Sequence record: PV340539
DNA length: 40,804 bases
Direction: 5' to 3' (one strand)
Source of the DNA: Escherichia phage mEp234
Notes under the pieces: generated by a model
What the model was told of the DNA's origin: nothing
The model's database searches: none
Seen by the model: the letters and a program-made list of their open reading frames with translations, nothing else
Shown here: piece by piece, positions 1 to 17,419 of the stretch
How positions within the stretch are numbered: the first letter of the stretch is position 1
Layout: each line of letters begins with the position of its first letter
Translations under genes and position numbers: made by a program

Positions 1-177
1 TTCGTAATCGTGAAAGAGGAAGGTAGGTTGTTTATCTGTGTCTGTCATTGTCTAGCATTGTCCACTGTAGTTAATTAACTGTCTGTTATAACTCGAAAAA
101 CAACCATTTTTTCACCTGAGTATGTCTACTAACGTCAAATATAGTTGTTTACTGTGCGCTGTTGTCCATGTGATATT

Positions 178-224
178 GTGTACCAGATGTGTACCAAACC
201 ATTATTTCTGAGCGTACCAAATAT
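178..224 (+). repeat. Cluster of three GTACCA(A/G) direct repeats just upstream of int; putative integrase arm-type binding sites (attL-side arm)
   Basis: 'tgtgtaccag', 'tgtgtaccaaacc', 'gcgtaccaaata' within 50 bp; same motif recurs at 40727-40749. Confidence 0.4.
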
Positions 225-229
225 TATTT

Positions 230-1408
230 ATGGCTATAAGCGACACAAAACTGCGTACTATTTATGGTAAACCATATTCGGGCCCACAAGAAGTGGCTGA
301 TGCCGATGGCCTCAGCGTACGAATTTCACCGAAGGGGGTCATCCAGTTCCAGTACCGCTATCGCTGGCATGGCAAGCCTAATCGACTTGGGCTTGGTCGA
401 TACCCATCCCTGTCTTTGAAGGATGCCAGACAGATCACTGCTGACTTGCGAAAGCTCTATTTCTCAGGAACGGATCCACGCACTTATTTTGAAGAGAAGG
501 TGGAGAACTCCATGACGGTCGCCCAGTGTCTCGACTACTGGTTCGACAATTACGTCTCTACAACTCTCAGAGAAAAGACCCAGGCACTTTACCGATCAAC
601 GGTTATGAAGCGCATGCATGACGCCTTCCCTAATCGACCGGCATCTTCTATCACGGTTAAGCAATGGGTTGACCTGCTTACCGAAGAAGAAAAAGATAAT
701 CCACGCCGAGCAAGGCAGGTGCTAAGTCAACTAAGATCAGCAATTAGTTGGTGCATGCGGCGTCAGTTGATAGATAGTTGCGCAATTATGAGCATCCAGC
801 CAAGGGACTTCGGCTCCCGCGCTGAGGTAGGGGATCGGGTACTGTCGTATCACGAACTGGCTAAGATTTGGCTTGCTATTGAAAGAAGCCGTGCGTCTAC
901 GTCAAATAAGCTCCTTCATCAGATGCTTATGCTGTGGGGGGCGAGGCTCTCAGAGCTTAGGCTGGCAACAAAGACAGAATTTGACCTGCTGGACAACGTA
1001 TGGACCGTACCGAAAGAGCATAGCAAGATGGGTAATGTTATCCGCCGTCCAATCTTCGAACAAATTAAGCCTTTTCTCGAAAAGGCCATGACAACGTACA
1101 ATGATGTTCTTTTCCCTGGAGAAGACATAAACAAACCGATCAGCATCGCTGCAGCCAACCGATTCGTAAACAGAATAAGGGGAGGGATGGATCTAGGTTA
1201 CTGGCGAACACATGATTTCAGAAGAACGCTTGTTACACGTCTGTCCGAGATGAATGTCGAGCCTCATGTTACTGAGCGAATGCTCGGTCATGAACTTGGC
1301 GGGATAATGTCCGTATACAATAAACACGACTGGATAGAGGCTCAGCGCAAAGCGTATGAGCTTCACGCTGATAAATTGTTCTGGCACATCAGGAGCATTT
1401 CTGATTAA
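230..1408 (+). CDS. int: Tyrosine site-specific integrase, P4-like with N-terminal arm-binding (DUF4102-type) domain
   Basis: 392 aa; N-terminus '...GLSVRISPKGVIQFQYRYRWHGKPNRLGLGRYPSLSLKDAR', C-terminal 'HDFRRT...RMLGHE...Y' catalytic signature. Confidence 0.93.
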   Translation: MAISDTKLRTIYGKPYSGPQEVADADGLSVRISPKGVIQFQYRYRWHGKPNRLGLGRYPSLSLKDARQITADLRKLYFSGTDPRTYFEEKVENSMTVAQCLDYWFDNYVSTTLREKTQALYRSTVMKRMHDAFPNRPASSITVKQWVDLLTEEEKDNPRRARQVLSQLRSAISWCMRRQLIDSCAIMSIQPRDFGSRAEVGDRVLSYHELAKIWLAIERSRASTSNKLLHQMLMLWGARLSELRLATKTEFDLLDNVWTVPKEHSKMGNVIRRPIFEQIKPFLEKAMTTYNDVLFPGEDINKPISIAAANRFVNRIRGGMDLGYWRTHDFRRTLVTRLSEMNVEPHVTERMLGHELGGIMSVYNKHDWIEAQRKAYELHADKLFWHIRSISD

Positions 1409-1580
1409 CGCCACCGTTAAGAATCCACCCTTCAACAGCTTCACGAAGGTATGATTTGGGGTGGGTTCTGACTGGCTTCGGAAATCCGTGCCGTTTGGTA
1501 TAGTTCCAGATTGTCTGACGTGATGAAACACCGAGCTTGTTCATCACTTCTTTCTCAGGAATCAGGCTGGTATCGGTCAT
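1389..1580 (-). CDS. AlpA/excisionase-family small DNA-binding protein (putative Xis or regulator)
   Basis: 63 aa, HTH-like '...LGVSSRQTIWNYTKRHGFPKPV...'; convergent with int, 20-nt 3' overlap. Confidence 0.75.
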   Translation of the reverse strand: MTDTSLIPEKEVMNKLGVSSRQTIWNYTKRHGFPKPVRTHPKSYLREAVEGWILNGGVNQKCS

Positions 1581-1659
1581 CTTAATTCTCCAGGCAAAAA
1601 TAAACCGCCATATAGCGGCTCTATCAGATATGTACAGGCCTCATCGAGTGTGAGGCGGG

Positions 1660-2004
1660 TTAGTCCTTGCGTAGCTCACTGATTCTTCTGTAAGTCTCTG
1701 GTGCTTTGTTCCCGTACGTCTTCATTTCAGACTTCAACAGAGCAACGAGGGGATCCCATTCGTTGAGGATGCCTTTGAATGCCGGAACGCGCTTTGCAAC
1801 CTTGTCGAATGAATCTCTGATTTCTGGAATCTGCTCGACAAGTGCAACGCATCGTCTGAAATCGGCTGCGTCATGAGGAGCGCCGAAGTGATGACCATAG
1901 ATATTCTTTTTCAGGCCACATGCGATTGAGGCAAGAGTTGCGCTACTGATGCCGACATCGCCAGTCGATAGCCATTTCAAAACCTTCATAGCCAAATCTG
2001 ACAT
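1660..2004 (-). CDS. Hypothetical phage protein (distal end of the leftward early operon)
   Basis: 114-aa ORF with GGAG RBS upstream of ATG; no family recognised. Confidence 0.55.
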   Translation of the reverse strand: MSDLAMKVLKWLSTGDVGISSATLASIACGLKKNIYGHHFGAPHDAADFRRCVALVEQIPEIRDSFDKVAKRVPAFKGILNEWDPLVALLKSEMKTYGNKAPETYRRISELRKD

Positions 2005-2026
2005 TTCTTGTCTCCATAAAACAAAA

Positions 2027-2050
2027 CTCGCCGTAGCGAGTTCAGATAAA
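2027..2050 (-). terminator. Putative intrinsic terminator (hairpin 'aactcgc-tacg-gcgagtt' + U-run on minus strand) between IS and 114-aa gene
   Basis: Stem-loop followed by TTTTGTTTT on minus strand. Confidence 0.3.
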
Positions 2051-2218
2051 AGAAATCCCCGCGAGTGCGAGGATTGTTATGTAATATTGGGTTTAATCAT
2101 CTATATGTTTTGTACAGAGAGGGCAAGTATCGTTTCCACCGTACTCGTGACCTGCTCCCCGTTGATTAGTACACCCCGATGTTAGTAATGTCTTCATAAG
2201 CCACATGAGGACATCCCC

Positions 2219-2482
2219 ATGAAGAAGCGTTTTTCCGACGAACAGATCATCAGTATTCTCCGCGAAGCCGAAGCTGGGGTACCCGCCCGTGAACTCTGCC
2301 GCAAGCATGCCATTTCCGATGCCACGTTTTACACCTGGCGTAAGAAGTATGGCGGTATGGAGGTGCCTGAAGTTAAGCGCCTGAAGTCGCTTGAGGAAGA
2401 GAACACCAGACTCAAGAAGCTGCTTGCCGAAGCCATGCTGGATAAAGAGGCGCTTCAGGTGGCTCTTGGGCGAAAGTACTGA
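2219..2482 (+). CDS. IS3-family transposase OrfA (HTH DNA-binding part)
   Basis: 87 aa '[46 protein letters not shown]...' typical IS3/IS407 OrfA with leucine zipper. Confidence 0.9.
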
Positions 2483-2505
2483 CGACAGACCAGAAGCGGG
2501 AAGCC

Positions 2506-3339
2506 GTGATGTTGATGTGTGATGCGACCGGTCTGTCGCAACGTCGTGCCTGCAGGCTTACAGGTTTATCCCTGTCGACCTGCCGCTATGAGGCTCACCG
2601 TCCGGCTGCTGATGCGCATTTATCAGGGCGCATCACTGAGCTGGCACTGGAGCGCAGGCGTTTTGGCTACCGTCGTATTTGGCAGTTGCTGCGCCGTGAA
2701 GGGCTTCATGTTAATCATAAGCGCGTGTACCGGCTTTATCACCTCAGTGGCCTGGGCGTAAAACGCAGAAGACGTCGTAAAGGGCTGGCAACAGAACGTC
2801 TGCCGCTGCTCCGTCCGGCGGCGCCCAATCTGACCTGGTCGATGGATTTCGTCATGGACGCACTTTCCACCGGTCGCAGGATCAAGTGTCTTACCTGCGT
2901 CGATGATTTCACAAAGGAATGCCTGACGGTCACTGTTGCCTTTGGGATTTCAGGCGTTCAGGTCACGCGTATTCTGGACAGCATTGCACTGTTTCGAGGC
3001 TATCCGGCGACGATAAGAACTGACCAGGGGCCGGAGTTCACTTGCCGTGCACTGGATCAATGGGCCTTTGAGCATGGTGTTGAGTTGCGCTTAATCCAGC
3101 CGGGCAAGCCAACGCAGAACGGATTTATTGAGAGCTTTAACGGACGATTTCGCGATGAATGTTTGAATGAGCACTGGTTCAGCGATATCGTTCATGCCAG
3201 GAAAATTATTAATGACTGGCGGCAGGATTATAACGAATGCCGCCCGCACTCCACGCTGAATTATCAGACACCGTCTGAATTTGCAGCGGGCTGGAGAAAG
3301 GGTCATTCTGAGAATGAAGATTCCGACGTTACTAACTGA
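2506..3339 (+). CDS. IS3-family transposase OrfB (DDE catalytic domain); probably expressed as OrfAB fusion by -1 frameshift in 2446-2482
   Basis: 277 aa with '...[54 protein letters not shown]...'; frame -1 relative to orfA, open from 2446. Confidence 0.9.
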
Positions 3340-3368
3340 GTGTTGTATCTAATCGTGGGGGCAGGTCA

Positions 3369-3513
3369 CAACGGCGCTGTAGTTTGTCCATTCTTTCTTT
3401 TTTGTCTGGCGATCGTAATACTGAACGCCAGCACGGATGTTGAATCCGATATTTTCCCCGGCCTGAAACTCTCTTGCGGGCTTGTTTAGTCTTACAGTAA
3501 TCGAATGTGCCAT
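3369..3513 (-). pseudogene. 5' fragment (~48 codons) of a gene translationally coupled to erf, truncated by the IS element; weakly SSB/OB-fold-like
   Basis: ATG overlaps erf stop (TAATG); 'MAHSITVRLNKPAREFQAGENIGFNIRAGVQYYDRQTKKKEWTNYSAVV' then runs into the IS inverted repeat; no continuation beyond the IS. Confidence 0.45.
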
Positions 3514-4118
3514 TAAGCAGCCGCTCCTTCTAATTCGTCTCGTCTGATGTTGTAAACGTCCTGCGCTTTGTGCTGCTCCGGTGTTCCTTCGAGCATCTTC
3601 CACGCTTTGGCGAACGCCTGTTTAAGCTCTTCCACGGTGTTTTTTTGCATTGCTGCGTCAGTGAATGCTTTTAGAACCTGTTCAGGTGTAGGTGATGGTT
3701 TTGATTGCTTTGCTGCTGCGTTCTGCTGATGTTTATGTTCGTCGGTATCTGCATCTTTCGCATCATCAATGCCGAACAAACCATTAAGGCAATACTTGCG
3801 CGCATAAGAGCTTGTAGCTCCAGTAACTTGTGCAGAATCCATTCCTTTCTTGCTTTCTTCCTCTCGTGCAAGAGCAGTTGCCGTATGACTGTTTTCGCCA
3901 TCGGTAATAGTTGCCGTGGCTTTCACGTAATACCGATCACCAATCAACACAACTTCATCGCTGATTGATAAAAACAGGCCATTCAGTAACGGCTTAACGC
4001 CTTCAAGAATGTCTTCGCAGCTTCTGTATTTATATTTACCGAATGAGTTGTACTGATTCTTTGGCGCGTTCAGATTCTCCTGAATAGCTGCCAGTCTTGC
4101 GTAAAATTCTTTGCTCAT
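3513..4118 (-). CDS. erf: Erf-family ssDNA annealing recombinase (P22 Erf-like)
   Basis: 'MSKEFYARLAAIQENLNAPKNQYNSFGKYKYRSCEDILEGVKPLL...' recalled as matching P22 Erf; likely start is the internal ATG at 4118 (track ORF 3513..4148). Confidence 0.85.
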   Translation of the reverse strand: MSKEFYARLAAIQENLNAPKNQYNSFGKYKYRSCEDILEGVKPLLNGLFLSISDEVVLIGDRYYVKATATITDGENSHTATALAREEESKKGMDSAQVTGATSSYARKYCLNGLFGIDDAKDADTDEHKHQQNAAAKQSKPSPTPEQVLKAFTDAAMQKNTVEELKQAFAKAWKMLEGTPEQHKAQDVYNIRRDELEGAAA

Positions 4119-4128
4119 ATGATTGTTC

Positions 4129-4299
4129 TCAGAATGGACACGGCCCAAGGAAATAACGCTGATTTAATACTTCAGTCTTTGCCGCATTTAAAAATACGCG
4201 AACACCTTCACGATCTCCCTTCTGGCGATACATTAACGCCTGCTGCGTGTACATGCGTCTCTGTAACTTGCTCTCCTTCACTGTGGTTGCAAGTGACAT
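4129..4299 (-). CDS. Small ORF (56 aa) between kil-like and erf; possible Arf-like accessory gene. A 56-aa ORF in another frame (4208..4378) overlaps it, so only one is likely real
   Basis: Strong RBS GAAGGAGATATTCATG; 'MSLATTVKESKLQRRMYTQQALMYRQKGDREGVRVFLNAAKTEVLNQRYFLGPCPF'; below the ORF-track size cutoff. Confidence 0.3.
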   Translation of the reverse strand: MSLATTVKESKLQRRMYTQQALMYRQKGDREGVRVFLNAAKTEVLNQRYFLGPCPF

Positions 4300-4374
4300 G
4301 AATATCTCCTTCGTTACCGATTAATTCTTTCATCTGACGAATGAATTCTTCGTCTGACCAGTTATCTGTAAAAC

Positions 4375-4527
4375 TCATTTCCTGCGATACAACGGAAGGT
4401 TGATAGCTGATTTCATCGCTTTATTTGCTTCAAACCACATTTTGGAATCACCAATAAATCTGGCTATTACTGCTTTGTTTTGTGCAGCACGAAGCATCTG
4501 ATGATTTATGGCTATTTCATTGCGCAT
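4375..4527 (-). CDS. Kil-like small protein (50 aa), putative host cell-division inhibitor
   Basis: 'MRNEIAINHQMLRAAQNKAVIARFIGDSKMWFEANKAMKSAINLPLYRRK'; '...IA(R/T)FIGD..KM...' resembles lambdoid Kil; sits between cIII and erf as in P22/lambda. Confidence 0.4.
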   Translation of the reverse strand: MRNEIAINHQMLRAAQNKAVIARFIGDSKMWFEANKAMKSAINLPLYRRK

Positions 4528-4643
4528 AATAAGACCTCAACTCTTTTCCATCCGTCACGTAATTTACGGGTGATTCGTTCAAGTAAAGATTCATTTAGTT
4601 GGAAGGCACCCATGCGAGCGCCTCCCGCGATTGCGTAAATCAT
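4512..4643 (-). CDS. cIII: cIII-like FtsH inhibitor (43 aa)
   Basis: 'MIYAIAGGARMGAFQLNESLLERITRKLRDGWKRVEVLLCAMK'; 'YAIAG' and 'ESLLERITRKLRDGWKR' match the lambda CIII core as recalled. Confidence 0.75.
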   Translation of the reverse strand: MIYAIAGGARMGAFQLNESLLERITRKLRDGWKRVEVLLCAMK

Positions 4644-4667
4644 GGGTGGTTCCTTATGTTGGTTTTA

Positions 4668-5636
4668 TTAGTAGGTTATTTTTGTTGCGAATACTTCGCC
4701 TTTTACGATGGCTGTTATGATATTTTTAGCAACATCTTCTGATGCACCAACCTTGATAAGGTCAGCAAGTATTTTGTTATTTACTTCTTTCCGGTGAGCT
4801 TTATCCTTTGCTCTACGCTCTTCTTCGTCCTTGATTCTTTTTTCTTCTGCTATTCTGGCTTGCTCTTTTGCTTCAGCCTCGCGCCGGATTCGTTCTGCCT
4901 CCTCCTGTGCTTTTCGGCGTTCTGCTTCAATTGCCACCTGCTTTTCTCTTTCAGCTCGTTCTGCTGCCTCTTTTGCTTCGCGCTGTGCTCGTTGCTCGGC
5001 TTCAATGCGTTCACGCTCTGCACGTTCCGCTGCGGCCTTAGCTTCTGCTTCTCGCCTTGCTGCTGCTTCAATTTCGGCTTTTGCCTTTGCTTCGGCTTCA
5101 GCTCTGGCTTTCTCTTCAGCTTCTCTTTTTAAGCGTTCTTCATGCTCTCGCTTTTCCTGCTCCGCTTTGAGTCTTGCCTCTTCTCTTTGGCGGTCAAATT
5201 CGCGATCCATCAAAATCGCTATTTCATGGTCAGACTCAATTTGCTTTGCGAGAGCTTCAGCTGCTGCCTTAGCTTCTTCTTCGGCTTTAATCCGTGCCTG
5301 CTCCTCCTCATAATCAGTAAGAGGCTGACGCGCCTTGGCTTTCAGCTCATCAAGTCGATCACGCACTGTCTTGCGGTTGGCATCAATTAGCTTTGGAATT
5401 TCCTTCAGTTCAGCAACAAGGTCTTTTCCAAGACCATCGAGATATGTTTTCGTCTGCGCAACTTTATACGCCAGAGAAGCGATCTCCTTTCTGCCCTTTG
5501 CCGTTGTGATATCAGGCACAAAGGACATAACTTCACGTTCAACCTTTTGGAGAATTTCTTCAATCTGGTCGGCAGACTGAAATACAGTCATTGCATTTGC
5601 TTTTTCAATAACAACTAAATCTGTTACTTCACTCAT
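4668..5636 (-). CDS. Early-operon protein with long E/A/K/R-rich coiled-coil central region; function unknown
   Basis: RBS GGAGGATATATG; 322 aa from MSEVTDLVV; central ~200 aa of '(A/E)EAKA...RREAEA' repeats; spurious low-complexity plus-strand ORFs overlap. Confidence 0.7.
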   Translation of the reverse strand: MSEVTDLVVIEKANAMTVFQSADQIEEILQKVEREVMSFVPDITTAKGRKEIASLAYKVAQTKTYLDGLGKDLVAELKEIPKLIDANRKTVRDRLDELKAKARQPLTDYEEEQARIKAEEEAKAAAEALAKQIESDHEIAILMDREFDRQREEARLKAEQEKREHEERLKREAEEKARAEAEAKAKAEIEAAARREAEAKAAAERAERERIEAEQRAQREAKEAAERAEREKQVAIEAERRKAQEEAERIRREAEAKEQARIAEEKRIKDEEERRAKDKAHRKEVNNKILADLIKVGASEDVAKNIITAIVKGEVFATKITY

Positions 5637-5794
5637 ATATCCTCCGTCAAAAAAATTGCCCTCACACTGGAGGGCAAAGAAGATTTCCAATAATCAGAAC
5701 AAGTCGGCTCCTGTTTAGTTACGAGCGACATTGCTCCGTGTATTCACTCGTTGGAATGAATACACAGTGCAGTGTTTATTCTGTTATTTATGCC

Positions 5795-5821
5795 AAAAAT
5801 AAAGGCCGCCATCAGGCAGCC
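5795..5821 (-). terminator. Putative intrinsic terminator at 3' end of the 83-aa gene (minus strand)
   Basis: Hairpin 'ggctgcc-tgat-ggcggcc' followed by UUUAUUUUU on minus strand. Confidence 0.35.
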
Positions 5822-6063
5822 TTGTTGTAAATGTTGCAGGTATCAAGTAAGTAATTAGATGGAGCGCCATAAATTATGAATTCATCGTTTGTCGGGTCCA
5901 TCTCCATCTCTTGGCCTATTGCCATTCTTGCGTCAGTGTCATCAGCGGCGAAGCATAAAACAGCCCACGCACCCATTGTTTTAAAAAGAACTGCAATTGG
6001 CTGTGGTTTTACTGAATTTGCGTTAGCGCGAAAATCACAAATCGCACTTTCATGAAATTCCAT
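5812..6063 (-). CDS. Hypothetical small protein (83 aa) downstream of N
   Basis: ORF in the position of lambdoid ral/sieB-type accessory genes; no family recognised. Confidence 0.45.
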   Translation of the reverse strand: MEFHESAICDFRANANSVKPQPIAVLFKTMGAWAVLCFAADDTDARMAIGQEMEMDPTNDEFIIYGAPSNYLLDTCNIYNKAA

Positions 6064-6121
6064 ATATCACCTCAAATAAGTGGTTTGCTGCCTAATTTTA
6101 TTTTCTGGCGACCAACACAAG

Positions 6122-6505
6122 TCACCTTGCTGTCAGTTGTTTTGATTTCCTGTAGCCTGCCGCGTAAAGAGCTACATTTGGAAGACATACACCAGTTTCT
6201 GGTTGCCTATGCCCAAACTCATTCGCGTACACAATGGCCGCTCTCTCCAGATTGCGTCTGTATTCTTTCTGTTGCCAGATCACGTCCTGTGCCATGAACT
6301 TAATTGGCTTAGCGTCTTCTATGCGCTCAGGCGTTTCGTGAGTACCTTTAGCCTGAATCTGCGCTCTGCTTAGAGTAGGGCGGTGTAATACTTCTGAACT
6401 TATTGCTTCTTCGCGGGCCAGTACGCCGTTAGCTAATGCCTTTGCCTTTAAACGCTCACGACGACGAGAACGTGAATTGCCTTTGAACTGAGTTCTGCGT
6501 GTCAT
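6122..6505 (-). CDS. N: N-type transcription antiterminator, P22 gene-24-like
   Basis: Arg-rich N-terminus 'MTRRTQFKGNSRSRRRERLKAKA'; C-terminus '...LPNVALYAAGYRKSKQLTAR' recalled as matching P22 gp24; first gene after pL/nutL. Confidence 0.8.
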   Translation of the reverse strand: MTRRTQFKGNSRSRRRERLKAKALANGVLAREEAISSEVLHRPTLSRAQIQAKGTHETPERIEDAKPIKFMAQDVIWQQKEYRRNLERAAIVYANEFGHRQPETGVCLPNVALYAAGYRKSKQLTAR

Positions 6506-6670
6506 ATAGACCTCCTGATGAACTTTGGTGGTGTGGTAGGTGGGAGACCCATTTCGACCTGTTTCGGCCTACTTCAATTCGGCAATAGTCCCGCAGGCCT
6601 CGCCGCTTTACGTGCGACATATTCCCGTCCATGAACCCTTCACCACACCCCAAAGTTCACTTTGGTTATT

Positions 6671-6685
6671 GCGCTTTGTCAGCGC
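6671..6685 (-). promoter_or_regulatory. nutL boxB hairpin, P22 type (GCGCUGACAAAGCGC on transcript)
   Basis: Forward 'gcgctttgtcagcgc'; perfect 5-bp stem with GACAA-containing loop in the N leader. Confidence 0.6.
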
Positions 6686-6753
6686 CGTAGATTCATCTCT
6701 GAATCGTTGTATATTCACCGCCCTGGTGAGTAGTGCGTCCTGCTGATGTGTTT

Positions 6754-6817
6754 AGTATCACCGCCAGTGGTATTTATGTCAACACCGCCAGAGATAATTT
6801 ATCACCGCAGATGGTTA
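6754..6817 (-). promoter_or_regulatory. pL promoter with operators oL1-oL2-oL3, lambda type
   Basis: oL1 'TATCACCGCCAGTGGTA' (6756-6772), oL2 'CAACACCGCCAGAGATA', oL3 'TATCACCGCAGATGGTTA'; -35 TTGACA / -10 GATACT on minus strand. Confidence 0.9.
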
Positions 6818-6965
6818 TCTGTATGTTTTTTATATAGATTTATTTTTTTGCAGGGGTGTGTGGCTTGGGAGGTGATCGAGAGATCTGAATTGCGATGTTT
6901 AGTGAGTTGTATCTATTAATTTTCAAATAAATACAATTGGTTATGTGTTTTGGGGCGAACGTGAG

Positions 6966-6993
6966 GCAAAGAAAACCCGGCGCGGTGGCCGGG
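6966..6993 (-). terminator. t-imm-like intrinsic terminator ending the cI-side leftward transcript
   Basis: Hairpin 'cccggccaccgcgccggg' + UUUUCUUUG on minus strand, directly after the acidic-protein stop; lambda-like flank. Confidence 0.7.
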
Positions 6994-7000
6994 TTGGAGA

Positions 7001-7426
7001 TTATTTTCTAGATGATGTTGGGGACCAAGGTAACGTTATAGTATCTAACACTGTGTTTTTGAACATATTTTCAAAAACTGTTTTTGTACATACATATACA
7101 TAATTTTCAAAAAACCAAGCATTTTCATTATAAAAATCCTCAGTTACTTCTTCATCGAGGTCACACTCAAATGTTAGTGTCAAGGTAGCCTCTGCCTTGA
7201 ACAATACATCCTCACCATCATCAAAATCTTTTTTATCGCGAGGGAAACCAGTTATCGATGGCTTAACTTCAATAAAGAGCCAATTTCCATCTTCATCTTT
7301 TTGAGGAACAACGTGATGCTCAGAAAATTTTAAGCTATATTTTCCGCCTTCAGAATTATCACTGTCGTCGATAAAAAGGGAAGAACCCTCGAGATCAAAT
7401 CCCTTAAAGCGAATTTTATCAAGCAT
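7001..7426 (-). CDS. Strongly acidic 141-aa protein of unknown function, third gene of the rex-slot cassette
   Basis: ATG overlaps hicB-like stop (TGATG); D/E- and aromatic-rich ('DDSDNSEGG', 'DKKDFDDGED', 'ECDLDEEVTEDFYNENAWFFENY'); track ORF 7001..7462 starts at a TTG, the ATG at 7426 is preferred. Confidence 0.6.
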   Translation of the reverse strand: MLDKIRFKGFDLEGSSLFIDDSDNSEGGKYSLKFSEHHVVPQKDEDGNWLFIEVKPSITGFPRDKKDFDDGEDVLFKAEATLTLTFECDLDEEVTEDFYNENAWFFENYVYVCTKTVFENMFKNTVLDTITLPWSPTSSRK

Positions 7427-7899
7427 CAATGTGGCACTCCGTTGTCTACTGAAACTTCCCAATAGGTCTCTTCTGTACGTCTACGGGATGAGAAGAAAGT
7501 AACTTCTCTAACATCCCTCGGTTTTTCAAAGTGGTAGTGAACCTCTTTTTTCCCATTAACTGACTCACTGACAGCCTGTTTTACATAATCGTTTAAAGTC
7601 ATATTCTTAGCTTTAGCAGCTAAATATGCTTTTTTATGCAGGGATTCACCTATCCGGATGTTAAACGAACCACTCATTGTCTTATCTGGAGATTTTCCTA
7701 TCTCTTCACAAGTGGAGAGGTAATCGTCCACGGCCTCCTCAAAGGCTGCACGGAGTTCTGCAACCGTTGCACCCTCATAAGTGACGAGATCATTTATACA
7801 TTCGAGTTTTCCATGCATCACCCCATCTTCAAATGAAATGCTGGAGCTACCATAGTAACCTTTGTATTTCATCAAGTTATTCATGATCATCAATCTCAT
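7426..7899 (-). CDS. HicB-like antitoxin-family protein with ~45-aa C-terminal extension (start ambiguous: 7899/7890/7884/7872)
   Basis: '...MKYKGYYGSSSISFEDGVMHGKLECINDLVTYEGATVAELRAAFEEAVDDYLSTCEEIGKSPDKTMSGSFNIRIGESLHKKAYLAAKAKNMTLNDYVKQAV' matches the HicB fold/RHH pattern; overlaps hicA-like 3' end. Confidence 0.7.
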   Translation of the reverse strand: MRLMIMNNLMKYKGYYGSSSISFEDGVMHGKLECINDLVTYEGATVAELRAAFEEAVDDYLSTCEEIGKSPDKTMSGSFNIRIGESLHKKAYLAAKAKNMTLNDYVKQAVSESVNGKKEVHYHFEKPRDVREVTFFSSRRRTEETYWEVSVDNGVPH

Positions 7900-8131
7900 C
7901 TAACAGCTGTTTAACTTCTTCCAAGACGTACCTTTTGAGGGTGTTTTCAGGATGAGGCTCATGAAAAATGACCAATCTATCAACACGTTGGTTGTAAAAT
8001 TTACGGCCAGAACCTCGTTTAGCATTCAAAAGCTTGAAGCCATACTGGTTCATGAGAGTAACGAACTCATCCCAAGTAAAATTTTTGGGTAAGCCGTCTA
8101 ACTTTGACTTTAGCTTTTCCTTTCTTCCCAC
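7877..8131 (-). CDS. HicA-like (YcfA-fold) toxin-family protein, GTG start
   Basis: 84 aa; '...GFKLLNAKRGSGRKFYNQRVDRLVIFHEPHPENTLKRYVLEEVKQLL' resembles the HicA motif but has GSGR where GS(N/H)H is expected; toxin-first order as in hicAB. Confidence 0.6.
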   Translation of the reverse strand: MGRKEKLKSKLDGLPKNFTWDEFVTLMNQYGFKLLNAKRGSGRKFYNQRVDRLVIFHEPHPENTLKRYVLEEVKQLLDEIDDHE

Positions 8132-8157
8132 GAAGGATACATCCTCTGTTAAAGGTA

Positions 8158-8180
8158 GTGCAACTGAAATCTAGTTGCAA
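8158..8180. promoter_or_regulatory. Imperfect palindrome GTGCAACT-n7-AGTTGCAA upstream of hicA-like start; candidate operator/promoter of the cassette
   Basis: Inverted repeat 7/8 match, ~30 bp upstream of the GTG start at 8131. Confidence 0.3.
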
Positions 8181-8291
8181 GCTATGCTATCTATAGACAA
8201 AATGTTTCATTGTTATATCAGAAGATACCCGATCTGTTTCACCTTCAACTACTATAATTTGTTATAAGCTATCAACCGGTGGAACTGCGAA

Positions 8292-8390
8292 TTAGCCGCT
8301 GGGTGTTGCGTATCCATCGATGATAAACCATGCCATAAACCCCATAGCTACGATGAACACCAAGATCGGAAACACTATACCAATTCTCAT
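8292..8390 (-). CDS. Small hydrophobic ORF (32 aa, single predicted TM helix) between cI and hicA-like
   Basis: RBS AGGGA-n7-ATG; 'MRIGIVFPILVFIVAMGFMAWFIIDGYATPSG'; below ORF-track cutoff. Confidence 0.3.
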   Translation of the reverse strand: MRIGIVFPILVFIVAMGFMAWFIIDGYATPSG

Positions 8391-8494
8391 GATTTTATCC
8401 CTGTCTACCCATGCTTCCTGGGCACCAGCGGCTCGTTACTCGGCATCACCCTTAATCCGCCGCCCCATGTGTTTGTTGTGATCCGTTGCTGGCC

Positions 8495-9211
<717 letters not shown>

Positions 9212-9218
9212 TTAAATC

Positions 9219-9284
9219 TATCACCGCAAGGGATAAATATCTAACACCGTGCGTGTTGACTATTTTACCTCTAGCGGTGATAAT
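9219..9284. promoter_or_regulatory. oR3-oR2-oR1 with divergent pRM and pR, lambda type
   Basis: oR3 'TATCACCGCAAGGGATA', oR2 'TAACACCGTGCGTGTTG', oR1 'TACCTCTAGCGGTGATA' (one base differs from my recollection of lambda oR1); pR -35 TTGACT / -10 GATAAT. Confidence 0.9.
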
Positions 9285-9299
9285 GGTTGCATGTACTAA

Positions 9300-9509
<210 letters not shown>

Positions 9510-9516
9510 GTAACAC

Positions 9517-9562
9517 CGCTCTTTTCACAATGGACATTCGTCCTACGTCGCTGACAAAGCGA
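9517..9562 (+). promoter_or_regulatory. nutR: boxA-like 'CGCTCTTTT' and boxB hairpin 'TCGCTGACAAAGCGA'
   Basis: boxA consensus-like element 22 nt upstream of a 5-bp stem / GACAA-loop hairpin, right after cro. Confidence 0.6.
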
Positions 9563-9647
9563 GTCCCAATATATCTGACCAACTAAGGCCATATGCGTTT
9601 CCACGCATACCTTTCAACTAACTATTCACTATTGGAAATCTTAAGAA

Positions 9648-9944
9648 ATGGAAAGAACAAGTTACAGCAAACTATCACAGCGTGACGTTGATCGCGCAGA
9701 AACAGATTTACTCATCAACCTGTCAACGCTTACCCAGCGCGGTCTGGCAAAGATGATTGGCTGTCATGAATCGAAGATAAGCAGAACGGACTGGAGATTT
9801 ATTGCTTCGGTCTTGTGTGCTTTTGGAATGGCATCAGACATCAGTCCGATTAGCAGGGCTTTTAAGTATGCGCTTGATGAAATCACAAAGAAAAAATCCC
9901 CGGCCGCCACCGAGGATTTTAAGCAAATTGATATGCAATTCTGA
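9648..9944 (+). CDS. cII: CII-family transcriptional activator
   Basis: 98 aa; HTH '...GLAKMIGCHESKISRTDW...' and C-terminus '...KKKSPAATEDFKQIDMQF' resemble lambda CII ('...KKRPAATERSEQIQMEF'). Confidence 0.7.
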   Translation: MERTSYSKLSQRDVDRAETDLLINLSTLTQRGLAKMIGCHESKISRTDWRFIASVLCAFGMASDISPISRAFKYALDEITKKKSPAATEDFKQIDMQF

Positions 9945-9976
9945 GGGAATTACTGGATCAATCCACAGGAGTAATT

Positions 9977-10141
9977 ATGACAAAACGTCGTAAGAAATAC
10001 CAGGAAAAAGAAGAGATTCGACACCCTGATTCACCTGAGGGATTAGTGGTAGCCGCAGCAAATAACAGGGCGTTCGCAGAGCGCCTTGTTGGTGTTTACA
10101 GACTAGCCAAAGCAGGAGTGAAGCATGGGCGTCGTTAAGTT
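9977..10141 (+). CDS. Small basic ORF (54 aa) between cII and the replication initiator
   Basis: RBS AGGAG-n7-ATG; 'MTKRRKKYQEKEEIRHPDSPEGLVVAAANNRAFAERLVGVYRLAKAGVKHGRR'; overlaps initiator start by 17 nt. Confidence 0.35.
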
Positions 10142-11015
10142 AGCTGATTACAGGCATAACCCTGTACAACATCAGGAGGCATCCAGTATGGGGTATGTCT
10201 CTATACACCGCCAGTTTATGGACAGCAGGCTCTATAAGGACTCTCAGGCAGTACATCTTTGGCTTCACTTAATCCTCAAGGCTAATCACGAATCTACTGT
10301 CGTCAATACGGATATCGGTCCGATAACTGTTGATCGCGGTCAGATGATAACTGGACGCCCGTCGCTGGTCAGAGAAACATTCATCCCCGACAACAAAGTT
10401 CGGAGCTTATTACGGACTTTTGAGTCGAAAGGGATGCTTAATATTTGCTCGATGGGGAAGAAATTTAGCCTGTTTACAATCGTTAAATATGACGATTTTC
10501 AGGCAAAAAATTGTCCAACGGTTGTCCAACGGTTGTCCAACGCAAACACCAGTAATGGCGCGGATCTCAGCGGAGATTGTCCAACGGTTGTCCAACGGTT
10601 GTCCATAAACAATAATATAAATAATATCTCTAATACTGACGTATTAGAGAGTGCCACAGCAGACAAAAAGTCTGACAAGAAAAAACCTTCCGTTAGCTGT
10701 CAGGATGTTGTCGATGCTTACCACGAAATCCTTCCTGAAGCGCCAAGAATCCGCGCACTGAATGACAAGCGTAAAAACCAGATCCGAACGTTCTGGCGCA
10801 AAGCCGGAGTGATAACCCGTCAGCTTGACGGGCATGGGTTCACGATGCAGGACTGGAGAAATTATTTGAGCTACGTAGGCGAAAATTGCCGATGGATGTT
10901 CGAAGAGCGCCCAAACCATCAACGCGGAACCGTCTGGCACAAAAAGGGATTTGATTTCCTGCTTAACGATAATACCTACCTGAAAGTTCGTGAGGGTGAA
11001 CACGATGACCGATAA
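10125..11015 (+). CDS. Replication initiator (O-like replisome organiser) with internal ori iterons
   Basis: 296 aa; good RBS; iterons and AT-rich tract inside the gene as in lambda O; followed by helicase gene. Confidence 0.75.
   Translation: MGVVKLADYRHNPVQHQEASSMGYVSIHRQFMDSRLYKDSQAVHLWLHLILKANHESTVVNTDIGPITVDRGQMITGRPSLVRETFIPDNKVRSLLRTFESKGMLNICSMGKKFSLFTIVKYDDFQAKNCPTVVQRLSNANTSNGADLSGDCPTVVQRLSINNNINNISNTDVLESATADKKSDKKKPSVSCQDVVDAYHEILPEAPRIRALNDKRKNQIRTFWRKAGVITRQLDGHGFTMQDWRNYLSYVGENCRWMFEERPNHQRGTVWHKKGFDFLLNDNTYLKVREGEHDDR
10511..10606 (+). repeat. Origin iterons: TTGTCCAACGG x3, 33-bp spacer, x2.7, followed by AT-rich tract (10607-10640)
   Basis: Perfect 11-bp tandem repeats read directly in sequence, inside the initiator gene. 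Confidence 0.85.
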
Positions 11016-12441
11016 TTTTTATGCGCCGCCCCATAGTATCGAGGCAGAGCAGGCGGTGATTGGTGGATTGCTTCTGGATGATGACAGCAGTGAGCGCGTC
11101 CAGAAAGTTCTGGCGATACTGAAGCCTGATTCATTTTACAGCCGACCACACAAAATCCTTTTCGAAGAAATAACCAGAATGCACCGGGAGCAAAAGCCAG
11201 TAGATGGGCTGACGCTTTTCGATGAACTGGAGCGCAAATCGTTAACGGCGTCTGTTGGCGGTTTTGCTTATATCGCTGAGATCGCAAAGAACACGCCAAG
11301 CGCAGCAAACATCGTTGCCTATGCAATGCAGGTTCGTGAAACCGCAATGGAACGCTACGCCATCAACCGCATGACTGAAGCGACGGAATTGCTCTATTCC
11401 CGCAACGGAATGACTGCAACGCAGAAGTACGAAGCTATTCAGTCGATTTTCACGCAACTGACAGACCATGCAAAAACCGGATCGCGTCGCGGCCTTCGCT
11501 CATTTGGTGAGGTCATGGAAGACTGGGTTAGCGACCTTGAGAAGCGATTTGACCCGTCAGGCGAACAACGAGGAATGAGCACAGGGATCCCATCGTTGGA
11601 CAGGATGCTGTCACCGAAAGGTCTGGTAAAAGGCTCTCTGTTTGTCATTGGCGCTCGCCCTAAGATGGGGAAAACGACGCTATACAGCCAGATGGCAATC
11701 AACTGCGCAGTGCATGAGAAAAAGCCCGCTCTGATGTTCAGCCTTGAAATGCCAGGTGACCAGATACTGGAAAAACTGGTGGGACAGAAGTCAGGTGTTA
11801 ACCCGAATATTTTTTACCTTCCGGCGACAAATGACGCTGATGACGGCTATCAGGGTGATTACGATGGTGACTTCAACAGGGCGATCGAGACAGCCAATCG
11901 CTTGAGTGAAATCGACCTGCTTTACATCGACGACACGCCGGGATTATCTCTGGCTCAAATCGTCAGCGAAAGCCGTCGAATCAAACGAGAAAAAGGATGC
12001 GTTGGCATGATTCTGGTCGATTACCTGACGCTAATGACCGCTGAAAAGGCCGATCGCAACGACCTTGCATACGGCATGATCACCAAAGGACTGAAGAACC
12101 TTGCCAAAGAGCTTGATTGCGTTGTTGTGCTTCTGACACAGCTTAACCGCGCATTGGAAAGCCGAACCAATAAACGCCCATTACCATGTGACTCGCGCGA
12201 TACAGGGCAGATTGAACAGGATTGCGATTATTGGGTGGGGATCCATCGGGAAGGTGCTTTTGATGACAGTGTTCCACCTGGTGAAACCGAACTAATCCTT
12301 CGTCTCAACCGTCATGGCAATACCGGCACGGTGTATTGCATTCAGGCAAATGGCGCTATTTATGACACAGACCAACAGTCTGCTGAAATGCGCCGCCGTG
12401 AACGCGAGGAACCGCAATCCAAGAAGAAAGGAGGATTCTGA
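11005..12441 (+). CDS. Replicative DNA helicase, DnaB family (P22 gp12-like)
   Basis: Walker A 'GARPKMGKT', N-terminal DnaB-like 'SIEAEQAVIGGLLLD'; ATG at 11005 overlaps initiator stop. Confidence 0.9.
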   Translation: MTDNFYAPPHSIEAEQAVIGGLLLDDDSSERVQKVLAILKPDSFYSRPHKILFEEITRMHREQKPVDGLTLFDELERKSLTASVGGFAYIAEIAKNTPSAANIVAYAMQVRETAMERYAINRMTEATELLYSRNGMTATQKYEAIQSIFTQLTDHAKTGSRRGLRSFGEVMEDWVSDLEKRFDPSGEQRGMSTGIPSLDRMLSPKGLVKGSLFVIGARPKMGKTTLYSQMAINCAVHEKKPALMFSLEMPGDQILEKLVGQKSGVNPNIFYLPATNDADDGYQGDYDGDFNRAIETANRLSEIDLLYIDDTPGLSLAQIVSESRRIKREKGCVGMILVDYLTLMTAEKADRNDLAYGMITKGLKNLAKELDCVVVLLTQLNRALESRTNKRPLPCDSRDTGQIEQDCDYWVGIHREGAFDDSVPPGETELILRLNRHGNTGTVYCIQANGAIYDTDQQSAEMRRREREEPQSKKKGGF

Positions 12442-12521
12442 TGACCATCTACATCACTGAGCTAATAACAGGCCTGCTGGTAATCGCAGGCCTTTTTATT
12501 TGGGGGAGAGGGAAGTCATGA
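12441..12521 (+). CDS. Small hydrophobic ORF (26 aa) translationally coupled between helicase and ninB
   Basis: RBS AGGAGG; TGATG overlap with helicase stop, ATGA overlap with ninB start; '[26 protein letters not shown]'. Confidence 0.35.
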   Translation: MTIYITELITGLLVIAGLFIWGRGKS

Positions 12522-12958
12522 AAAAACTAACCTTTGAAATTCGATCTCCGGCACATCAGCAAAACGCTATTCACGCGGTACAGCAAATTCTTCCAGACCC
12601 AACCAAACCAATCGTAGTAACCATTCAGGAACGCAACCGCAGCTTAGACCAAAACAGGAAGCTATGGGCCTGCTTAGGTGACGTCTCTCGTCAGGTTGAA
12701 TGGCATGGTCGCTGGCTGGATGCAGAAAGCTGGAAGTGTGTTTTTACAGCAGCATTAAAGCAGCAGGACGTTGTTCCTAACCTTGCCGGGAATGGCTTTG
12801 TGGTAATAGGCCAGTCAACCAGCAGGATGCGTGTAAGCGAATTTGCGGAGTTATTAGAGCTTATACAGGCATTCGGTACAGAGCGTGGCGTTAAGTGGTC
12901 AGACGAAGCGCGACTGGCTCTGGAGTGGAAAGCGAGATGGGGAGACAAGGCTGCATGA
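12518..12958 (+). CDS. ninB: NinB recombination protein, lambda type
   Basis: '[56 protein letters not shown]...' near-identical to lambda NinB as recalled. Confidence 0.93.
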
Positions 12959-13131
12959 GACGACAGCGACGAAGTATCACCGACATCATCTGTGAAAACT
13001 GCAAATACCTTCCAACGAAACGCTCCAGAAATAAACGCAAGCCAATCCCAAAAGAATCTGACGTAAAAACCTTCAACTACACGGCTCACCTGTGGGATAT
13101 CCGGTGGCTAAGACATCGTGCGAGGAAATGA
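12955..13131 (+). CDS. ninD: NinD, lambda type
   Basis: 58 aa '[58 protein letters not shown]'; ATGA-coupled to ninB. Confidence 0.85.
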
Positions 13132-13496
13132 CAATGGATTATTCACAGTTAAGTGATTTTGAAATTAACAAGCGAGTGGCAATTTGCTGTGGATTTGCTC
13201 CCGAAGATTGCGAAATCGCAAAGTTGGGAACATCAATCGTTGGTGTTGAGTGGGATGACGAAACTGGTTATGCAATAAAAACGGTTGATTACTGTAAAAG
13301 ACCATCAGACGCATGGCCGATTATCACTGAAAACAACATCAGCATAATTTTAGACAATCCCTCAATGCCGTGCGCTACAGACAACGCAAGGGACTTGTTT
13401 GATGATGCCGGACCGAATGTTGGTGTCGCATATGACAATCCACTCCGTGCCGCCATGATTGTCTTTCTCATGATTCAGGACGCCAATAATGCTTAG
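13128..13496 (+). CDS. Nin-region protein of unknown function (NinX/DUF-type)
   Basis: 122 aa from '[23 protein letters not shown]...'; ATGA-coupled to ninD. Confidence 0.6.
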
Positions 13497-13665
13497 CCCA
13501 TCCCAATCCCTTCAATACCAGAAAGAAAGCGTCGAGCGGGCATTAACGTGCGCTAACTGCGGTCAGAAGTTGCATGTGCTGGAAGTTCACGTGTGTGAGC
13601 ACTGCTGCGCAGAACTGATGAGCGATCCGAATAGCTCAATGTACGAGGAAGAAGACGATGGCTAA
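13489..13665 (+). CDS. ninF: NinF, lambda type
   Basis: 58 aa '[58 protein letters not shown]'; below ORF-track cutoff. Confidence 0.8.
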
Positions 13666-14269
13666 ACCAGCGCGAAGACGATGTAAAAACGATGAATGTC
13701 GGGAATGGTTTCACCCTGCATTCGCCAATCAGTGGTGGTGCTCTCCAGAGTGTGGAACCAAGATAGCACTCGAACGACGAAGTAAAGAACGCGAAAAAGC
13801 GGAAAAAGCAGCAGAGAAGAAACGACGACGAGAGGAGCAGAAACAGAAAGATAAACTTAAGATTCGAAAACTCGCCTTAAAGCCCCGCAGTTACTGGATT
13901 AAACAAGCCCAACAAGCCGTAAACGCCTTCATCAGAGAAAGAGACCGCGACTTACCATGTATCTCGTGCGGAACGCTCACGTCTGCTCAGTGGGATGCCG
14001 GACATTACCGGACAACTGCTGCGGCACCTCAACTCCGATTTGATGAACGCAATATTCACAAGCAATGCGTGGTGTGCAACCAGCACAAAAGCGGAAATCT
14101 CGTTCCGTATCGCGTCGAACTGATTAATCGCATCGGGCAGGAAGCAGTAGACGAAATCGAATCAAACCATAACCGCCATCGCTGGACTGTCGAAGAGTGC
14201 AGGGCCATCAAGGCGGAGTATCAGCAGAAACTCAAAGACCTGCGAAATAGCAGAAGTGAGGCCGCATGA
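13658..14269 (+). CDS. ninG: NinG (Rap) recombination endonuclease, lambda type
   Basis: 203 aa '[41 protein letters not shown]...'. Confidence 0.92.
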
Positions 14270-14472
14270 CGTTCTCAGTAAAAACCATTCCAGACATGCT
14301 CGTTGAAGCATACGGAAACCAGACAGAAGTAGCACGCAGACTGAAATGTAGTCGCGGTACGGTCAGAAAATACGTTGATGATAAAGACGGGAAAATGCAC
14401 GCCATCGTCAACGACGTTCTCATGGTTCATCGCGGATGGAGTGAAAGAGATGCGCTATTACGAAAAAATTGA
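14266..14472 (+). CDS. ninH: NinH, lambda type
   Basis: 68 aa '[39 protein letters not shown]...'. Confidence 0.85.
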
Positions 14473-15115
14473 TGGCAGCAAATACCGAAATATTTGGGTA
14501 GTTGGCGATCTGCACGGATGCTACACGAACCTGATGAAAAAACTGGAGACGATAGGATTCGACACCAAAAAAGACCTGCTTATCTCGGTTGGCGATTTGG
14601 TCGATCGCGGTACAGAGAACGTCGAATGCCTGGAATTAATCACATTCCCCTGGTTCAGAGCTGTACGTGGAAACCATGAGCAAATGATGATTGATGGCTT
14701 ATCAGAGCGCGGAAACGTCAATCACTGGATGCTTAATGGCGGTGGCTGGTTCTTTAATCTCGATTACGACAAAGAAATTCTGGCTAAAGCTCTTGCCCAT
14801 AAAGCAGATGAACTTCCGTTAATCATCGAACTGGTGAGCAAAGATAAAAAATATGTCATCTGCCACGCCGATTATCCTTGTGACGAATACGAGTTTGGAA
14901 AGCCAGTTGATCATCAGCAGGTAATCTGGAACCGCGAACGAATCAGCAACTCACAAAACGGGATCGTGAAAGAAATCAAAGGCGCGGACACGTTCATCTT
15001 TGGTCATACGCCAGCAGTGAAACCACTCAAGTTTGCCAACCAAATGTATATCGATACCGGCGCAGTGTTCTGCGGAAACCTAACATTGATTCAGGTACAG
15101 GGAGAAGGCGCATGA
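14450..15115 (+). CDS. ninI: Ser/Thr protein phosphatase (lambda NinI / PPase)
   Basis: 221 aa from '[24 protein letters not shown]...GDLVDRG...GNHE' metallophosphatase motifs. Confidence 0.93.
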
Positions 15116-15735
15116 GACTCGAAAGCGTAGCTAAATTTCATTCGCCAAAAAGCCCGATGATGAGCGACTCACCACGGGCCACGGCTTCTGACTCTCTTTC
15201 CGGTACTGATGTGATGGCTGCTATGGGGATGGCGCAATCACAAGCCGGATTCGGTATGGCTGCATTCTTCGGTAAGCACGAACTCAGCCAGAACGACAAA
15301 CAAAAGGCTATCAACTATCTGATGCAATTTGCACACAAGGTATCGGGGAAATACCGTGGTGTGGCAAAGCTTGAAGGAAATACTAAGGCAAAGGTACTGC
15401 AAGTGCTCGCAACATTCGCTTATGCGGATTATTGCCGTAGTGCCGCGACGCCGGGGGCAAGATGCAGAGATTGCCATGGTACAGGCCGCGCGGTTGATAT
15501 AGCAAAAACAGAGCAGTGGGGGAGAGTTGTTGAGAAAGAGTGCGGAAGATGCAAAGGTGTCGGCTATTCAAGGATGCCAGCAAGCGCCGCATATCGCGCT
15601 GTAACGATGCTAATCCCAAACCTTACTCAACCCACCTGGTCACGCACTGTTAAGCCGCTGTATGACGCTCTGGTGGTGCAATGCCACAAGGAAGAGTCAA
15701 TCGCAGACAATATCTTGAATGCGGTCACACGTTAG
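15112..15735 (+). CDS. Q: Q late-gene antiterminator, lambda type
   Basis: 207 aa '[29 protein letters not shown]...[12 protein letters not shown]...CGRCKGVGY' as in lambda Q. Confidence 0.93.
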
Positions 15736-15777
15736 CAGCATGATTGCCACGGATGGCAACATATTAACGGCATGATA

Positions 15778-15806
15778 TTGACTTTTTGAATAAAGTTGGG
15801 TAAATT
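15778..15806 (+). promoter_or_regulatory. pR' late promoter (-35 TTGACT, -10 TAAATT) with overlapping qut region
   Basis: 'ttgactttttgaataaagttgggtaaatttgacatcaacgatgg' closely resembles lambda pR'. Confidence 0.8.
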
Positions 15807-15843
15807 TGACATCAACGATGGATAAATTCACTCGTTAAATAAA

Positions 15844-15874
15844 GCCCTGAGTTAATATCTCGGGGTTTTTTGCG
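15844..15874 (+). terminator. tR' intrinsic terminator very close to pR' (short 6S-like transcript)
   Basis: Hairpin 'gccctgag-ttaatat-ctcgggg' (one G.U) + TTTTTTG, ~40-60 nt after the predicted start. Confidence 0.6.
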
Positions 15875-16169
15875 TTTTAAGCACGGCCTTTCTGAAAGCA
15901 CATCAAACCAAATACCAGACAGACAAAAATAATCAACTTATCCGCTGTGGCTACGGTGCGGTGTGCTTTGCATAAAAGAAAACCAGCGCAATGGCTGGCT
16001 TCGTGAAAGCGGGTGGCATGAGGTTGCCCTAACAACCTCCTGCCGTTTTGCCCGTGCATATCGGTCACGAACAAATCTGATTACTAAACACAGTAGCCTG
16101 GATTTGTTCTATCAGTAATCGACCTTATTCCTAATTAAATAGAGCAAATCCCCTTATTGGGGGTAAGAC

Positions 16170-17387: not shown

Positions 17388-17419
17388 TTTTTTTGCAAAT
17401 CACAAAGTCAATTTAATGA

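Follow-up and report, generated by a model that had tools for sequence, protein, structure and literature searches.

The hicABC genes of mEp234

The immunity region of Escherichia phage mEp234 (PV340539; the whole sequence of 40,804 nt is called the window below) carries three adjoining genes, hicA, hicB and hicC, on the minus strand between the cI repressor gene and the terminator Timm (Table 1). The main subject of this study is hicA, which encodes a HicA-family protein (MGRKEKLKSKLDGLPKNFTWDEFVTLMNQYGFKLLNAKRGSGRKFYNQRVDRLVIFHEPHPENTLKRYVLEEVKQLLDEIDDHE) with an unusual active-site motif. hicB starts 4 nt past the hicA stop codon, and its own stop codon overlaps the start codon of hicC; this layout suggests a translationally coupled operon with hicA as its first gene. 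The hicB start used here is that of the mEp506 and RefSeq annotations; the in-frame ATGs that precede it, as far as 7899, are less probable as start codons.

Table 1. Features in and around the hicABC genes (coordinates are those of the window).
Feature	Position	Strand	Description
hicA	7877..8131	-	84-aa HicA-family toxin, GTG start
HicA residues 1-17	8081..8131	-	Lys-rich N-terminal extension; predicted helix kept across the subfamily
GSGRKF, HicA residues 40-45	7997..8014	-	site of the canonical G-S-H motif; Gly42/Arg43 instead of His
FHEPHP, HicA residues 56-61	7949..7966	-	contains H57, the proposed relocated active-site His
hicB	7426..7872	-	148-aa antitoxin; N-terminal HicB fold and ribbon-helix-helix DNA-binding domain
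HicB C-terminal tail, about residues 115-148	7429..7530	-	FEKPRDVREVTFFSSRRRTEETYWEVSVDNGVPH; candidate chaperone-addiction (ChAD) element
hicC	7001..7426	-	141-aa predicted SecB-like chaperone; ATG overlaps hicB stop (TGATG)
palindrome TGCAACT-N7-AGTTGCA	8159..8179	.	perfect; 28-48 nt upstream of the hicA GTG; candidate HicB operator
32-aa ORF	8292..8390	-	MRIGIVFPILVFIVAMGFMAWFIIDGYATPSG; between cI and hicA; RefSeq 'YoaK family small membrane protein'
cI	8495..9208	-	repressor, lambda immunity; hicABC lies downstream, where lambda has rexA-rexB
Timm	6974..6995	-	intrinsic terminator closing the cI-hicABC unit; annotated Timm in EF120460
N	6122..6505	-	antiterminator, 127 aa, unlike lambda N

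The hicA open reading frame (ORF) is no chance ORF; it is a genuine gene under selection and belongs to the HicA family. The same 84-aa product is called by the RefSeq Prokaryotic Genome Annotation Pipeline (PGAP) and in three phage records. Its match to the Pfam profile HicA_toxin (PF07927) scored 32.1 bits, above the gathering score of 27, with residues 20-73 covering profile positions 1-52 of 58, and it matched phrog_8887 ('toxin') with an E-value of 2.7e-34; the NCBIfam HicA models gave no match. In comparison with a Klebsiella copy, the ratio of nonsynonymous to synonymous substitutions (dN/dS) was 0.063, with dS of about 1.

An initial annotation of the window, made from the letters and a list of ORFs, had remarked on the GTG start and on a lysine-rich N-terminal extension of about 17 residues. 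Both held up and are conserved in relatives. Residues 1-17 (VGRKEKLKSKLDGLPKN) contain six Lys and one Arg. A Shine-Dalgarno-like AGAGGA/GGGGA lies about 10 nt upstream of the GTG, this motif and the GTG are kept in the Klebsiella and Salmonella copies, and distant HicA relatives align from residue 1; judged from these comparisons, the start and the extension are real. The AlphaFold2 (AF2) model of HicA has helices at residues 3-12 and 20-29, strands at 32-35, 43-47 and 52-56, and a helix at 68-82. This predicted structure shows the HicA fold, with the first helix as an addition that precedes the core.

The canonical active-site histidine is absent from HicA

Canonical members of PF07927 with known structures include the HicA proteins of Burkholderia pseudomallei (BpHicA; 4C26 and 6G26), Yersinia pestis (YpHicA3; 4P78), Streptococcus pneumoniae (SpHicA; 5YRZ) and E. 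coli (6HPB). Their catalytic histidine stands in a G-S-H motif at the start of strand β2, and H24 of BpHicA, H28 of YpHicA3 and H36 of SpHicA are reported to be essential for toxicity or RNase activity (reviewed in PMC11594946). A phmmer search of the PDB with the single mEp234 sequence found no HicA, and the mapping onto the PDB proteins was made with a profile of 111 diverse relatives. In this alignment position 42 corresponded to H24 of BpHicA (the crystallized protein is the H24A mutant and reads GSAHHF) and to H36 of SpHicA (GSHIKM), and the GSrrkF segment of the profile corresponded to GSHRHY of a Treponema denticola TDE0482-type HicA (hhalign probability 97%, E = 1.2e-10). The G-S and F45 anchors aligned to all three proteins without gaps. 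At the place of the histidine the mEp234 protein has Gly42, followed by Arg43, in agreement with the initial annotation, which had read GSGRKF here and had noted that the histidine was missing. The equivalence to His23 of E. coli K-12 HicA was not used, as the hhalign match to that protein is unreliable (probability 3.6%).

The whole protein contains only three histidines, H57, H60 and H83. As none lies within residues 1-56, no alignment register can supply the histidine of a G-S-H motif. P59-H60-P61 form a 'PHP' motif that is common to BpHicA. Compared with the canonical HicA proteins, mEp234 HicA thus lacks the G-S-H histidine, has His57 on the neighbouring strand, and is longer (84 aa, versus roughly 58-66 aa), with the 17-residue N-terminal helix as an extra element.

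A large HicA subfamily shares the N-terminal helix and H57

A HMMER scan at E ≤ 1e-3 returned 820 representatives of 50%-identity clusters, nearly all of them 80-90 aa long and aligning from residue 1. An index search put the number of 90%-identity clusters, every one with PF07927, at 7,678 or more. The motif of this subfamily is GS[R/G/A]..F…HxPHP, together with the N-terminal helix. Across 293 aligned sequences, position 42 was Arg in 203, Gly in 37, Ala in 16 and His in 16. The downstream FHEPHP segment, described as conserved in the initial annotation, proved to be so: position 57 was His in 279 of these sequences, position 59 Pro in 291 and position 60 His in 290. Within the N-terminal part, K6 was present in 148 of 151 subfamily sequences and is accompanied by a conserved P15/D17/F18/T19/W20 block. 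Taken over these alignments, the altered motif appears as the signature of a very large HicA subfamily and not as a one-off defect of the phage protein.

hicB was adjacent in every distant-relative locus examined. Three distant H57-type HicA proteins are encoded in plain two-gene hicAB operons, and on this evidence we rejected the idea that the subfamily with the N-terminal extension and H57 is specific to chaperone systems. The unusual motif and the chaperone are therefore independent features.

A histidine is found at position 42 or at position 57

The few subfamily members with a histidine at position 42 lacked, with rare exceptions, the one at position 57. In a set of 150 diverse representatives, H57 without H42 was found in 134, H42 without H57 in 14 and both in two, and no sequence had neither (Fisher's exact test, p = 7e-18). 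Sequences with H42 carry V, Y, A, C, P or T at position 57; BpHicA has Thr there.

The H42-type sequences were 35.9% identical among themselves and 35.2% identical to the H57-type, they formed eight clusters at 45% identity, and for 13 of the 16 the nearest neighbour was of the H57-type. A neighbour-joining tree calculated with columns 42, 43 and 57 masked gave about 12 Fitch changes for each of the two characters. These comparisons indicate that the H42-type is not one clade and that the switch occurred in at least about eight separate lineages.

Positions 42 and 57 also covary. By mutual information with average product correction (MI-APC) this pair ranked 5th of 3,240 (z = 5.0), and the other top pairs, 23-73, 43-58, 20-43 and 32-52, fit contacts of the HicA fold. 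Strands 43-47 and 52-56 of the AF2 model imply the register i+j=99, under which residues 42 and 57 would pair next across the strands, their side chains facing the same way.

The second strongest covariation in the subfamily links position 43 (R or V) to position 58 (E or K). The mEp234 protein has R43 and E58 (codons at about 8003..8005 and 7958..7960); a salt bridge between them, next to the histidine site, is possible, and the two residues may be part of the active-site geometry.

The near mutual exclusivity of H42 and H57 argues for a relocated active-site residue and not for lost activity. From this pattern and the model we infer that H57 of HxPHP is the active-site histidine, placed on the paired strand, and that HicA is most likely still an RNase toxin. 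The initial annotation had suggested a catalytically altered protein in place of a classic RNase toxin; the canonical histidine is indeed gone, but the H57 pattern points to relocation instead of loss of activity. It had also named a catalytic His conserved at another aligned position as the finding that would make the protein a standard HicA. A compensating histidine does exist in H57, but at a different structural position.

HicB carries a putative chaperone-binding tail and HicC has a predicted SecB-like fold

HicB matched PF05534 with 66.9 bits and phrog_9151 ('HicB-like antitoxin') with an E-value of 5e-55; an Arc-like repressor match was also obtained. Its C-terminal tail of about 30-35 aa is rich in aromatic residues (F, F, Y, W) and occurs in the three-gene versions of the locus (window, Klebsiella and Salmonella). 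The tail is missing from the HicB proteins of two-gene relatives, with 46-51% identity in the core. We therefore regard it as a candidate ChAD-like extension, that is, a putative chaperone-binding element.

The product of the third gene is labelled 'unknown function' in PHROGs and 'hypothetical protein' by RefSeq PGAP; in PV340542 (mEp506) its GenBank product name is 'HicC chaperone'. Its AF2 model had a predicted local distance difference test score (pLDDT) of 79.1 and a predicted template modelling (TM) score of 0.73. The best Foldseek match of the model was 5mtw, the SecB-like chaperone Rv1957 of a Mycobacterium tuberculosis toxin-antitoxin-chaperone (TAC) system with its ChAD peptide (E = 2.4e-5, TM 0.67-0.74), followed by the SecB proteins of E. 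coli and Haemophilus influenzae (1qyn, 1ozb, 1fx3). All four structures were matched with a probability of 1.0 and TM values of 0.55-0.74. Sequence identity to Rv1957 was 12-14%, and the partner antitoxin of Rv1957 is HigA1, not HicB. HicC is thus predicted to be a SecB-like chaperone, a likeness visible in the predicted fold alone. The SecB-like third gene, the ChAD-like tail of HicB and the operon layout together point to a TAC cassette of the HicAB type. Neither this tail nor the nature of the third gene had been noticed in the initial annotation.

Regulation and surroundings of hicABC

The palindrome upstream of hicA is unchanged in the copies from Klebsiella and Salmonella, although the DNA on either side has diverged. 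Palindromic operators are the rule for HicB proteins of the ribbon-helix-helix type (PMC10865869), and this one is the natural candidate for an operator of HicB. A weak promoter overlapping it can be proposed, as a reading of the sequence only.

In lambda, rexAB is expressed by read-through from the promoter pRM. By analogy, hicABC expression may also come from pRM read-through.

About 100 nt at the Timm end (window 6900..7010) are common to lambda, where they include the 3' end of rexB, to HK97 and SfI, and to hundreds of E. coli prophages. The genes that abut this sequence elsewhere encode RexB, NYN-domain, P63C-domain or hypothetical proteins. The Timm-proximal sequence looks like the conserved boundary of a swappable cargo slot.

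The Klebsiella prophages do not have the YoaK-family ORF that lies between cI and hicA; there the repressor gene is followed by hicA after 145 nt. The surroundings of hicABC are mosaic: cI, cro and the operators belong to lambda immunity, yet N is unlike lambda N and presumably resembles the N of Stx phages.

Distribution and existing annotation

Positions 3-19705 of the window matched phage mEp234 at 100% identity. A segment of 1.4 kb around hicA was 100% identical to the mEp234 and HK106 immunity regions and 99.1% identical to that of mEp506. hicA and hicB were already named in EF120460 (2007), followed there by a hypothetical gene and Timm. PV340542 (2025, mEp506) lists a HicA toxin, a HicB antitoxin and a HicC chaperone, and the three proteins are identical to those of the window; RefSeq PGAP assigns the first two genes to the HicA and HicB families. 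Most of a 1.4-kb query spanning hicABC was present in 6 of 5,426 complete E. coli genomes.

A second setting of the trio is in prophages of Klebsiella, where it comes immediately after an S24 repressor gene of different immunity. A diverged hicA-hicB-hicC (HicA identity 71%) was found in Salmonella enterica (locus 5001..6098) outside any obvious prophage, flanked by a type I secretion/ABC transporter operon and by a gene whose product exceeds 2,800 aa and has LPD/MuF_C domains. This location indicates that the hicABC cassette moves independently of lambdoid phages.

hicA is accordingly a known, already deposited HicA homologue, and the cassette is by its architecture a HicAB-type TAC, a known kind of system in a known kind of locus. 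Literature searches on mEp506, on HicC and on mEp234 with HicA found no paper on the hicABC genes, and the 14-class HicA survey of Gerdes mentions neither catalytic residues nor chaperones. Two features appear to be undescribed in the searchable literature: first, that H57 takes the place of the G-S-H histidine across the subfamily, in an either/or pattern, and second, that the third gene is predicted to be SecB-like, for which the only record is a GenBank product name.

Discussion

Comparison with known systems

The closest counterpart by gene architecture is the HicAB-type TAC of Methylomonas methanica MC09 (Metme_2813/2812 and SecB-TA), which was validated and shown to be chaperone-dependent in E. 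coli (PMC5105189). Both systems combine a HicA toxin, a HicB with a C-terminal ChAD extension (a candidate one in hicABC) and a SecB-like chaperone (by predicted fold in hicABC), but hicABC is phage-borne and the Pfam SecB model does not detect its HicC. A search for the M. methanica HicA by way of the published primer gave no match with the ATG included, and without the ATG only unrelated Bacteroidales.

The position of hicABC is that of another TAC system, HigBAC of E. coli NT1F31, which occupies the slot downstream of cI in a lambdoid prophage. In HigBAC, the structural protein gpV of the lambda tail vies with the ChAD for binding to the chaperone, the antitoxin is lost and the toxin aborts the infection (bioRxiv 10.1101/2024.02.24.581848). 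HigBAC and hicABC share the prophage location in the rexAB slot, a SecB-like chaperone (by predicted fold in hicABC) and an aromatic-rich ChAD tail (a candidate one in hicABC); the toxins of HigBAC and CmdTAC are of the HigB/RelE fold or an ADP-ribosyltransferase, whereas that of hicABC is a HicA. Lambda RexAB likewise lies between cI and Timm, is expressed in lysogens and acts by abortive exclusion of superinfecting phages, but it has no homology to hicABC and consists of a sensor and a membrane channel and not of a toxin-antitoxin (TA) pair.

The T. denticola TDE0482-type HicA, from a two-gene HicAB (Bordes et al. 2016), shares the N-terminal helix extension and aligns over its full length, but keeps the canonical G-S-H histidine and lacks H57 and PHP, and is an example of the alternative state. 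Its locus was taken from a metagenome contig (ODVE01000121.1, 872..1441) by an exact match to the published primer. Being of the canonical-histidine type, it was set aside as evidence for toxicity of H57-type proteins.

A working model for hicABC

We favour the interpretation, with a probability of roughly 0.6, that mEp234 HicA is a functional RNase toxin with a relocated histidine and the first gene product of a hicABC TAC operon, for which a role in defence is proposed. The active-site histidine would have moved from the start of β2 (position 42) to the end of β3 (position 57), its cross-strand partner, leaving the imidazole in about the same place. HicB would neutralise HicA; with its ribbon-helix-helix domain at the palindrome it probably also acts as the repressor of the operon, and HicC, as a tetramer, would have to hold the HicB tail for HicB to be stable. 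By analogy with HigBAC and CmdTAC, a protein of a superinfecting phage may compete for HicC, upon which HicB would be degraded; the freed HicA would then cleave RNA and abort the infection. The cassette would be placed to do this in a lysogen-expressed slot downstream of cI, at the position of rexAB in lambda.

A wider version of this model is more tentative, and we hold it at somewhat less than an even chance. It states both that the histidine hopped repeatedly, at least about eight times, between positions 42 and 57, with the double-histidine proteins as intermediates and H57 as the commonest state in the subfamily, and that hicABC of mEp234, HK106 and mEp506 is an abortive-infection sensor that replaces Rex and operates through a SecB-like chaperone orphaned at the sequence level.

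Several observations weigh against the model. The AF2 model of HicA is of moderate confidence (pLDDT 67.5). The covariation rests on 16 H42-type sequences, trees from 84 residues are noisy, and H60 of PHP, which both types conserve, may be the actual catalytic residue. By sequence, HicC matched neither Pfam (SecB included) nor NCBIfam nor, with phmmer, the PDB; PADLOC gave no match for HicA, HicB or HicC; and a simple scan for sigma-70 promoters gave no strong candidate immediately upstream of hicA. A literature search found no experiment on mEp234 HicA or on any H57-type HicA, and HicAB2 of a Pseudomonas putida prophage is a working TA without defence against the phages tested (PMC12894663).

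The last point bears on the rival explanation that survives best, namely that hicABC is a working TAC that serves prophage addiction or stabilisation, or is simply selfish, and does not defend by abortive infection. Classical TA logic, the same trio outside prophages in Salmonella and the rarity of the cassette in E. coli would all suit such a role. The slot argues for defence, since in another lambdoid prophage this lysogen-expressed rexAB position holds the proven defence TAC HigBAC and elsewhere it holds other defence-like cargo, and SecB-like TAC chaperones are demonstrated phage sensors. We give the addiction role perhaps one chance in four.

It is less probable that the toxin is active with H57 outside the chemistry, H60 or R43, K44 and K6 being catalytic and H42 or H57 serving to stabilise the hairpin or to bind RNA. 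H60 is the most conserved histidine of the subfamily and is common to canonical HicA proteins, and the strong R43-E58 covariation suggests structural coupling within the hairpin. In the HicA proteins of B. pseudomallei, Y. pestis and S. pneumoniae, however, mutation of the residue equivalent to position 42 takes away toxicity or RNase activity (PMC11594946). If the role were purely structural, there would also be little reason to expect His in particular at either of two alternative sites.

Lower still, and in our judgement improbable, is a catalytically dead HicA that acts as a plain RNA-binding or regulatory protein and not as a toxin. The lack of histidine at 42 or 43, or anywhere in the first 56 residues, would fit this, as would the missing NCBIfam match and a Pfam score barely above threshold. 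Such a protein is hard to reconcile with a motif common to thousands of clusters or with the strong purifying selection on hicA. The hicB gene is always attached, the candidate addiction tail and the predicted dedicated chaperone make sense only if HicA is harmful, and the near-perfect alternation of H42 and H57 indicates that one histidine is required at this spot. An ordinary HicA whose canonical histidine was merely misaligned can be dismissed: HicA proteins are short and divergent and the K-12 alignment could not be trusted, but no register of H57, H60 and H83 puts a histidine in the β1-β2 loop or in β2, the anchors align gap-free to three other HicA proteins, and the sequence itself already refutes this reading.

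Implications

Every active-site assignment in HicA proteins goes back to the G-S-H histidine of a small number of model proteins. If HicA proteins in their thousands use a histidine of the neighbouring strand instead, then catalytically dead controls, motif-based calling and the reading of structures should target H57 in these proteins. The TDE0482-type HicA is a useful natural comparator for the H42/H57 state, and the two-state pattern, with its rare double-histidine members, offers a small and tractable natural case of the migration of an active-site residue.

For TAC systems, the predicted fold of HicC illustrates that SecB-like chaperones can escape sequence-based detection, with Pfam and PGAP giving only 'hypothetical protein', and surveys that rely on SecB hidden Markov models would miss the HicC family. 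With hicABC, a predicted TAC of the HicA type joins the cargo genes known from the rexAB slot of lambda, and the phages that carry it grow on E. coli K-12.

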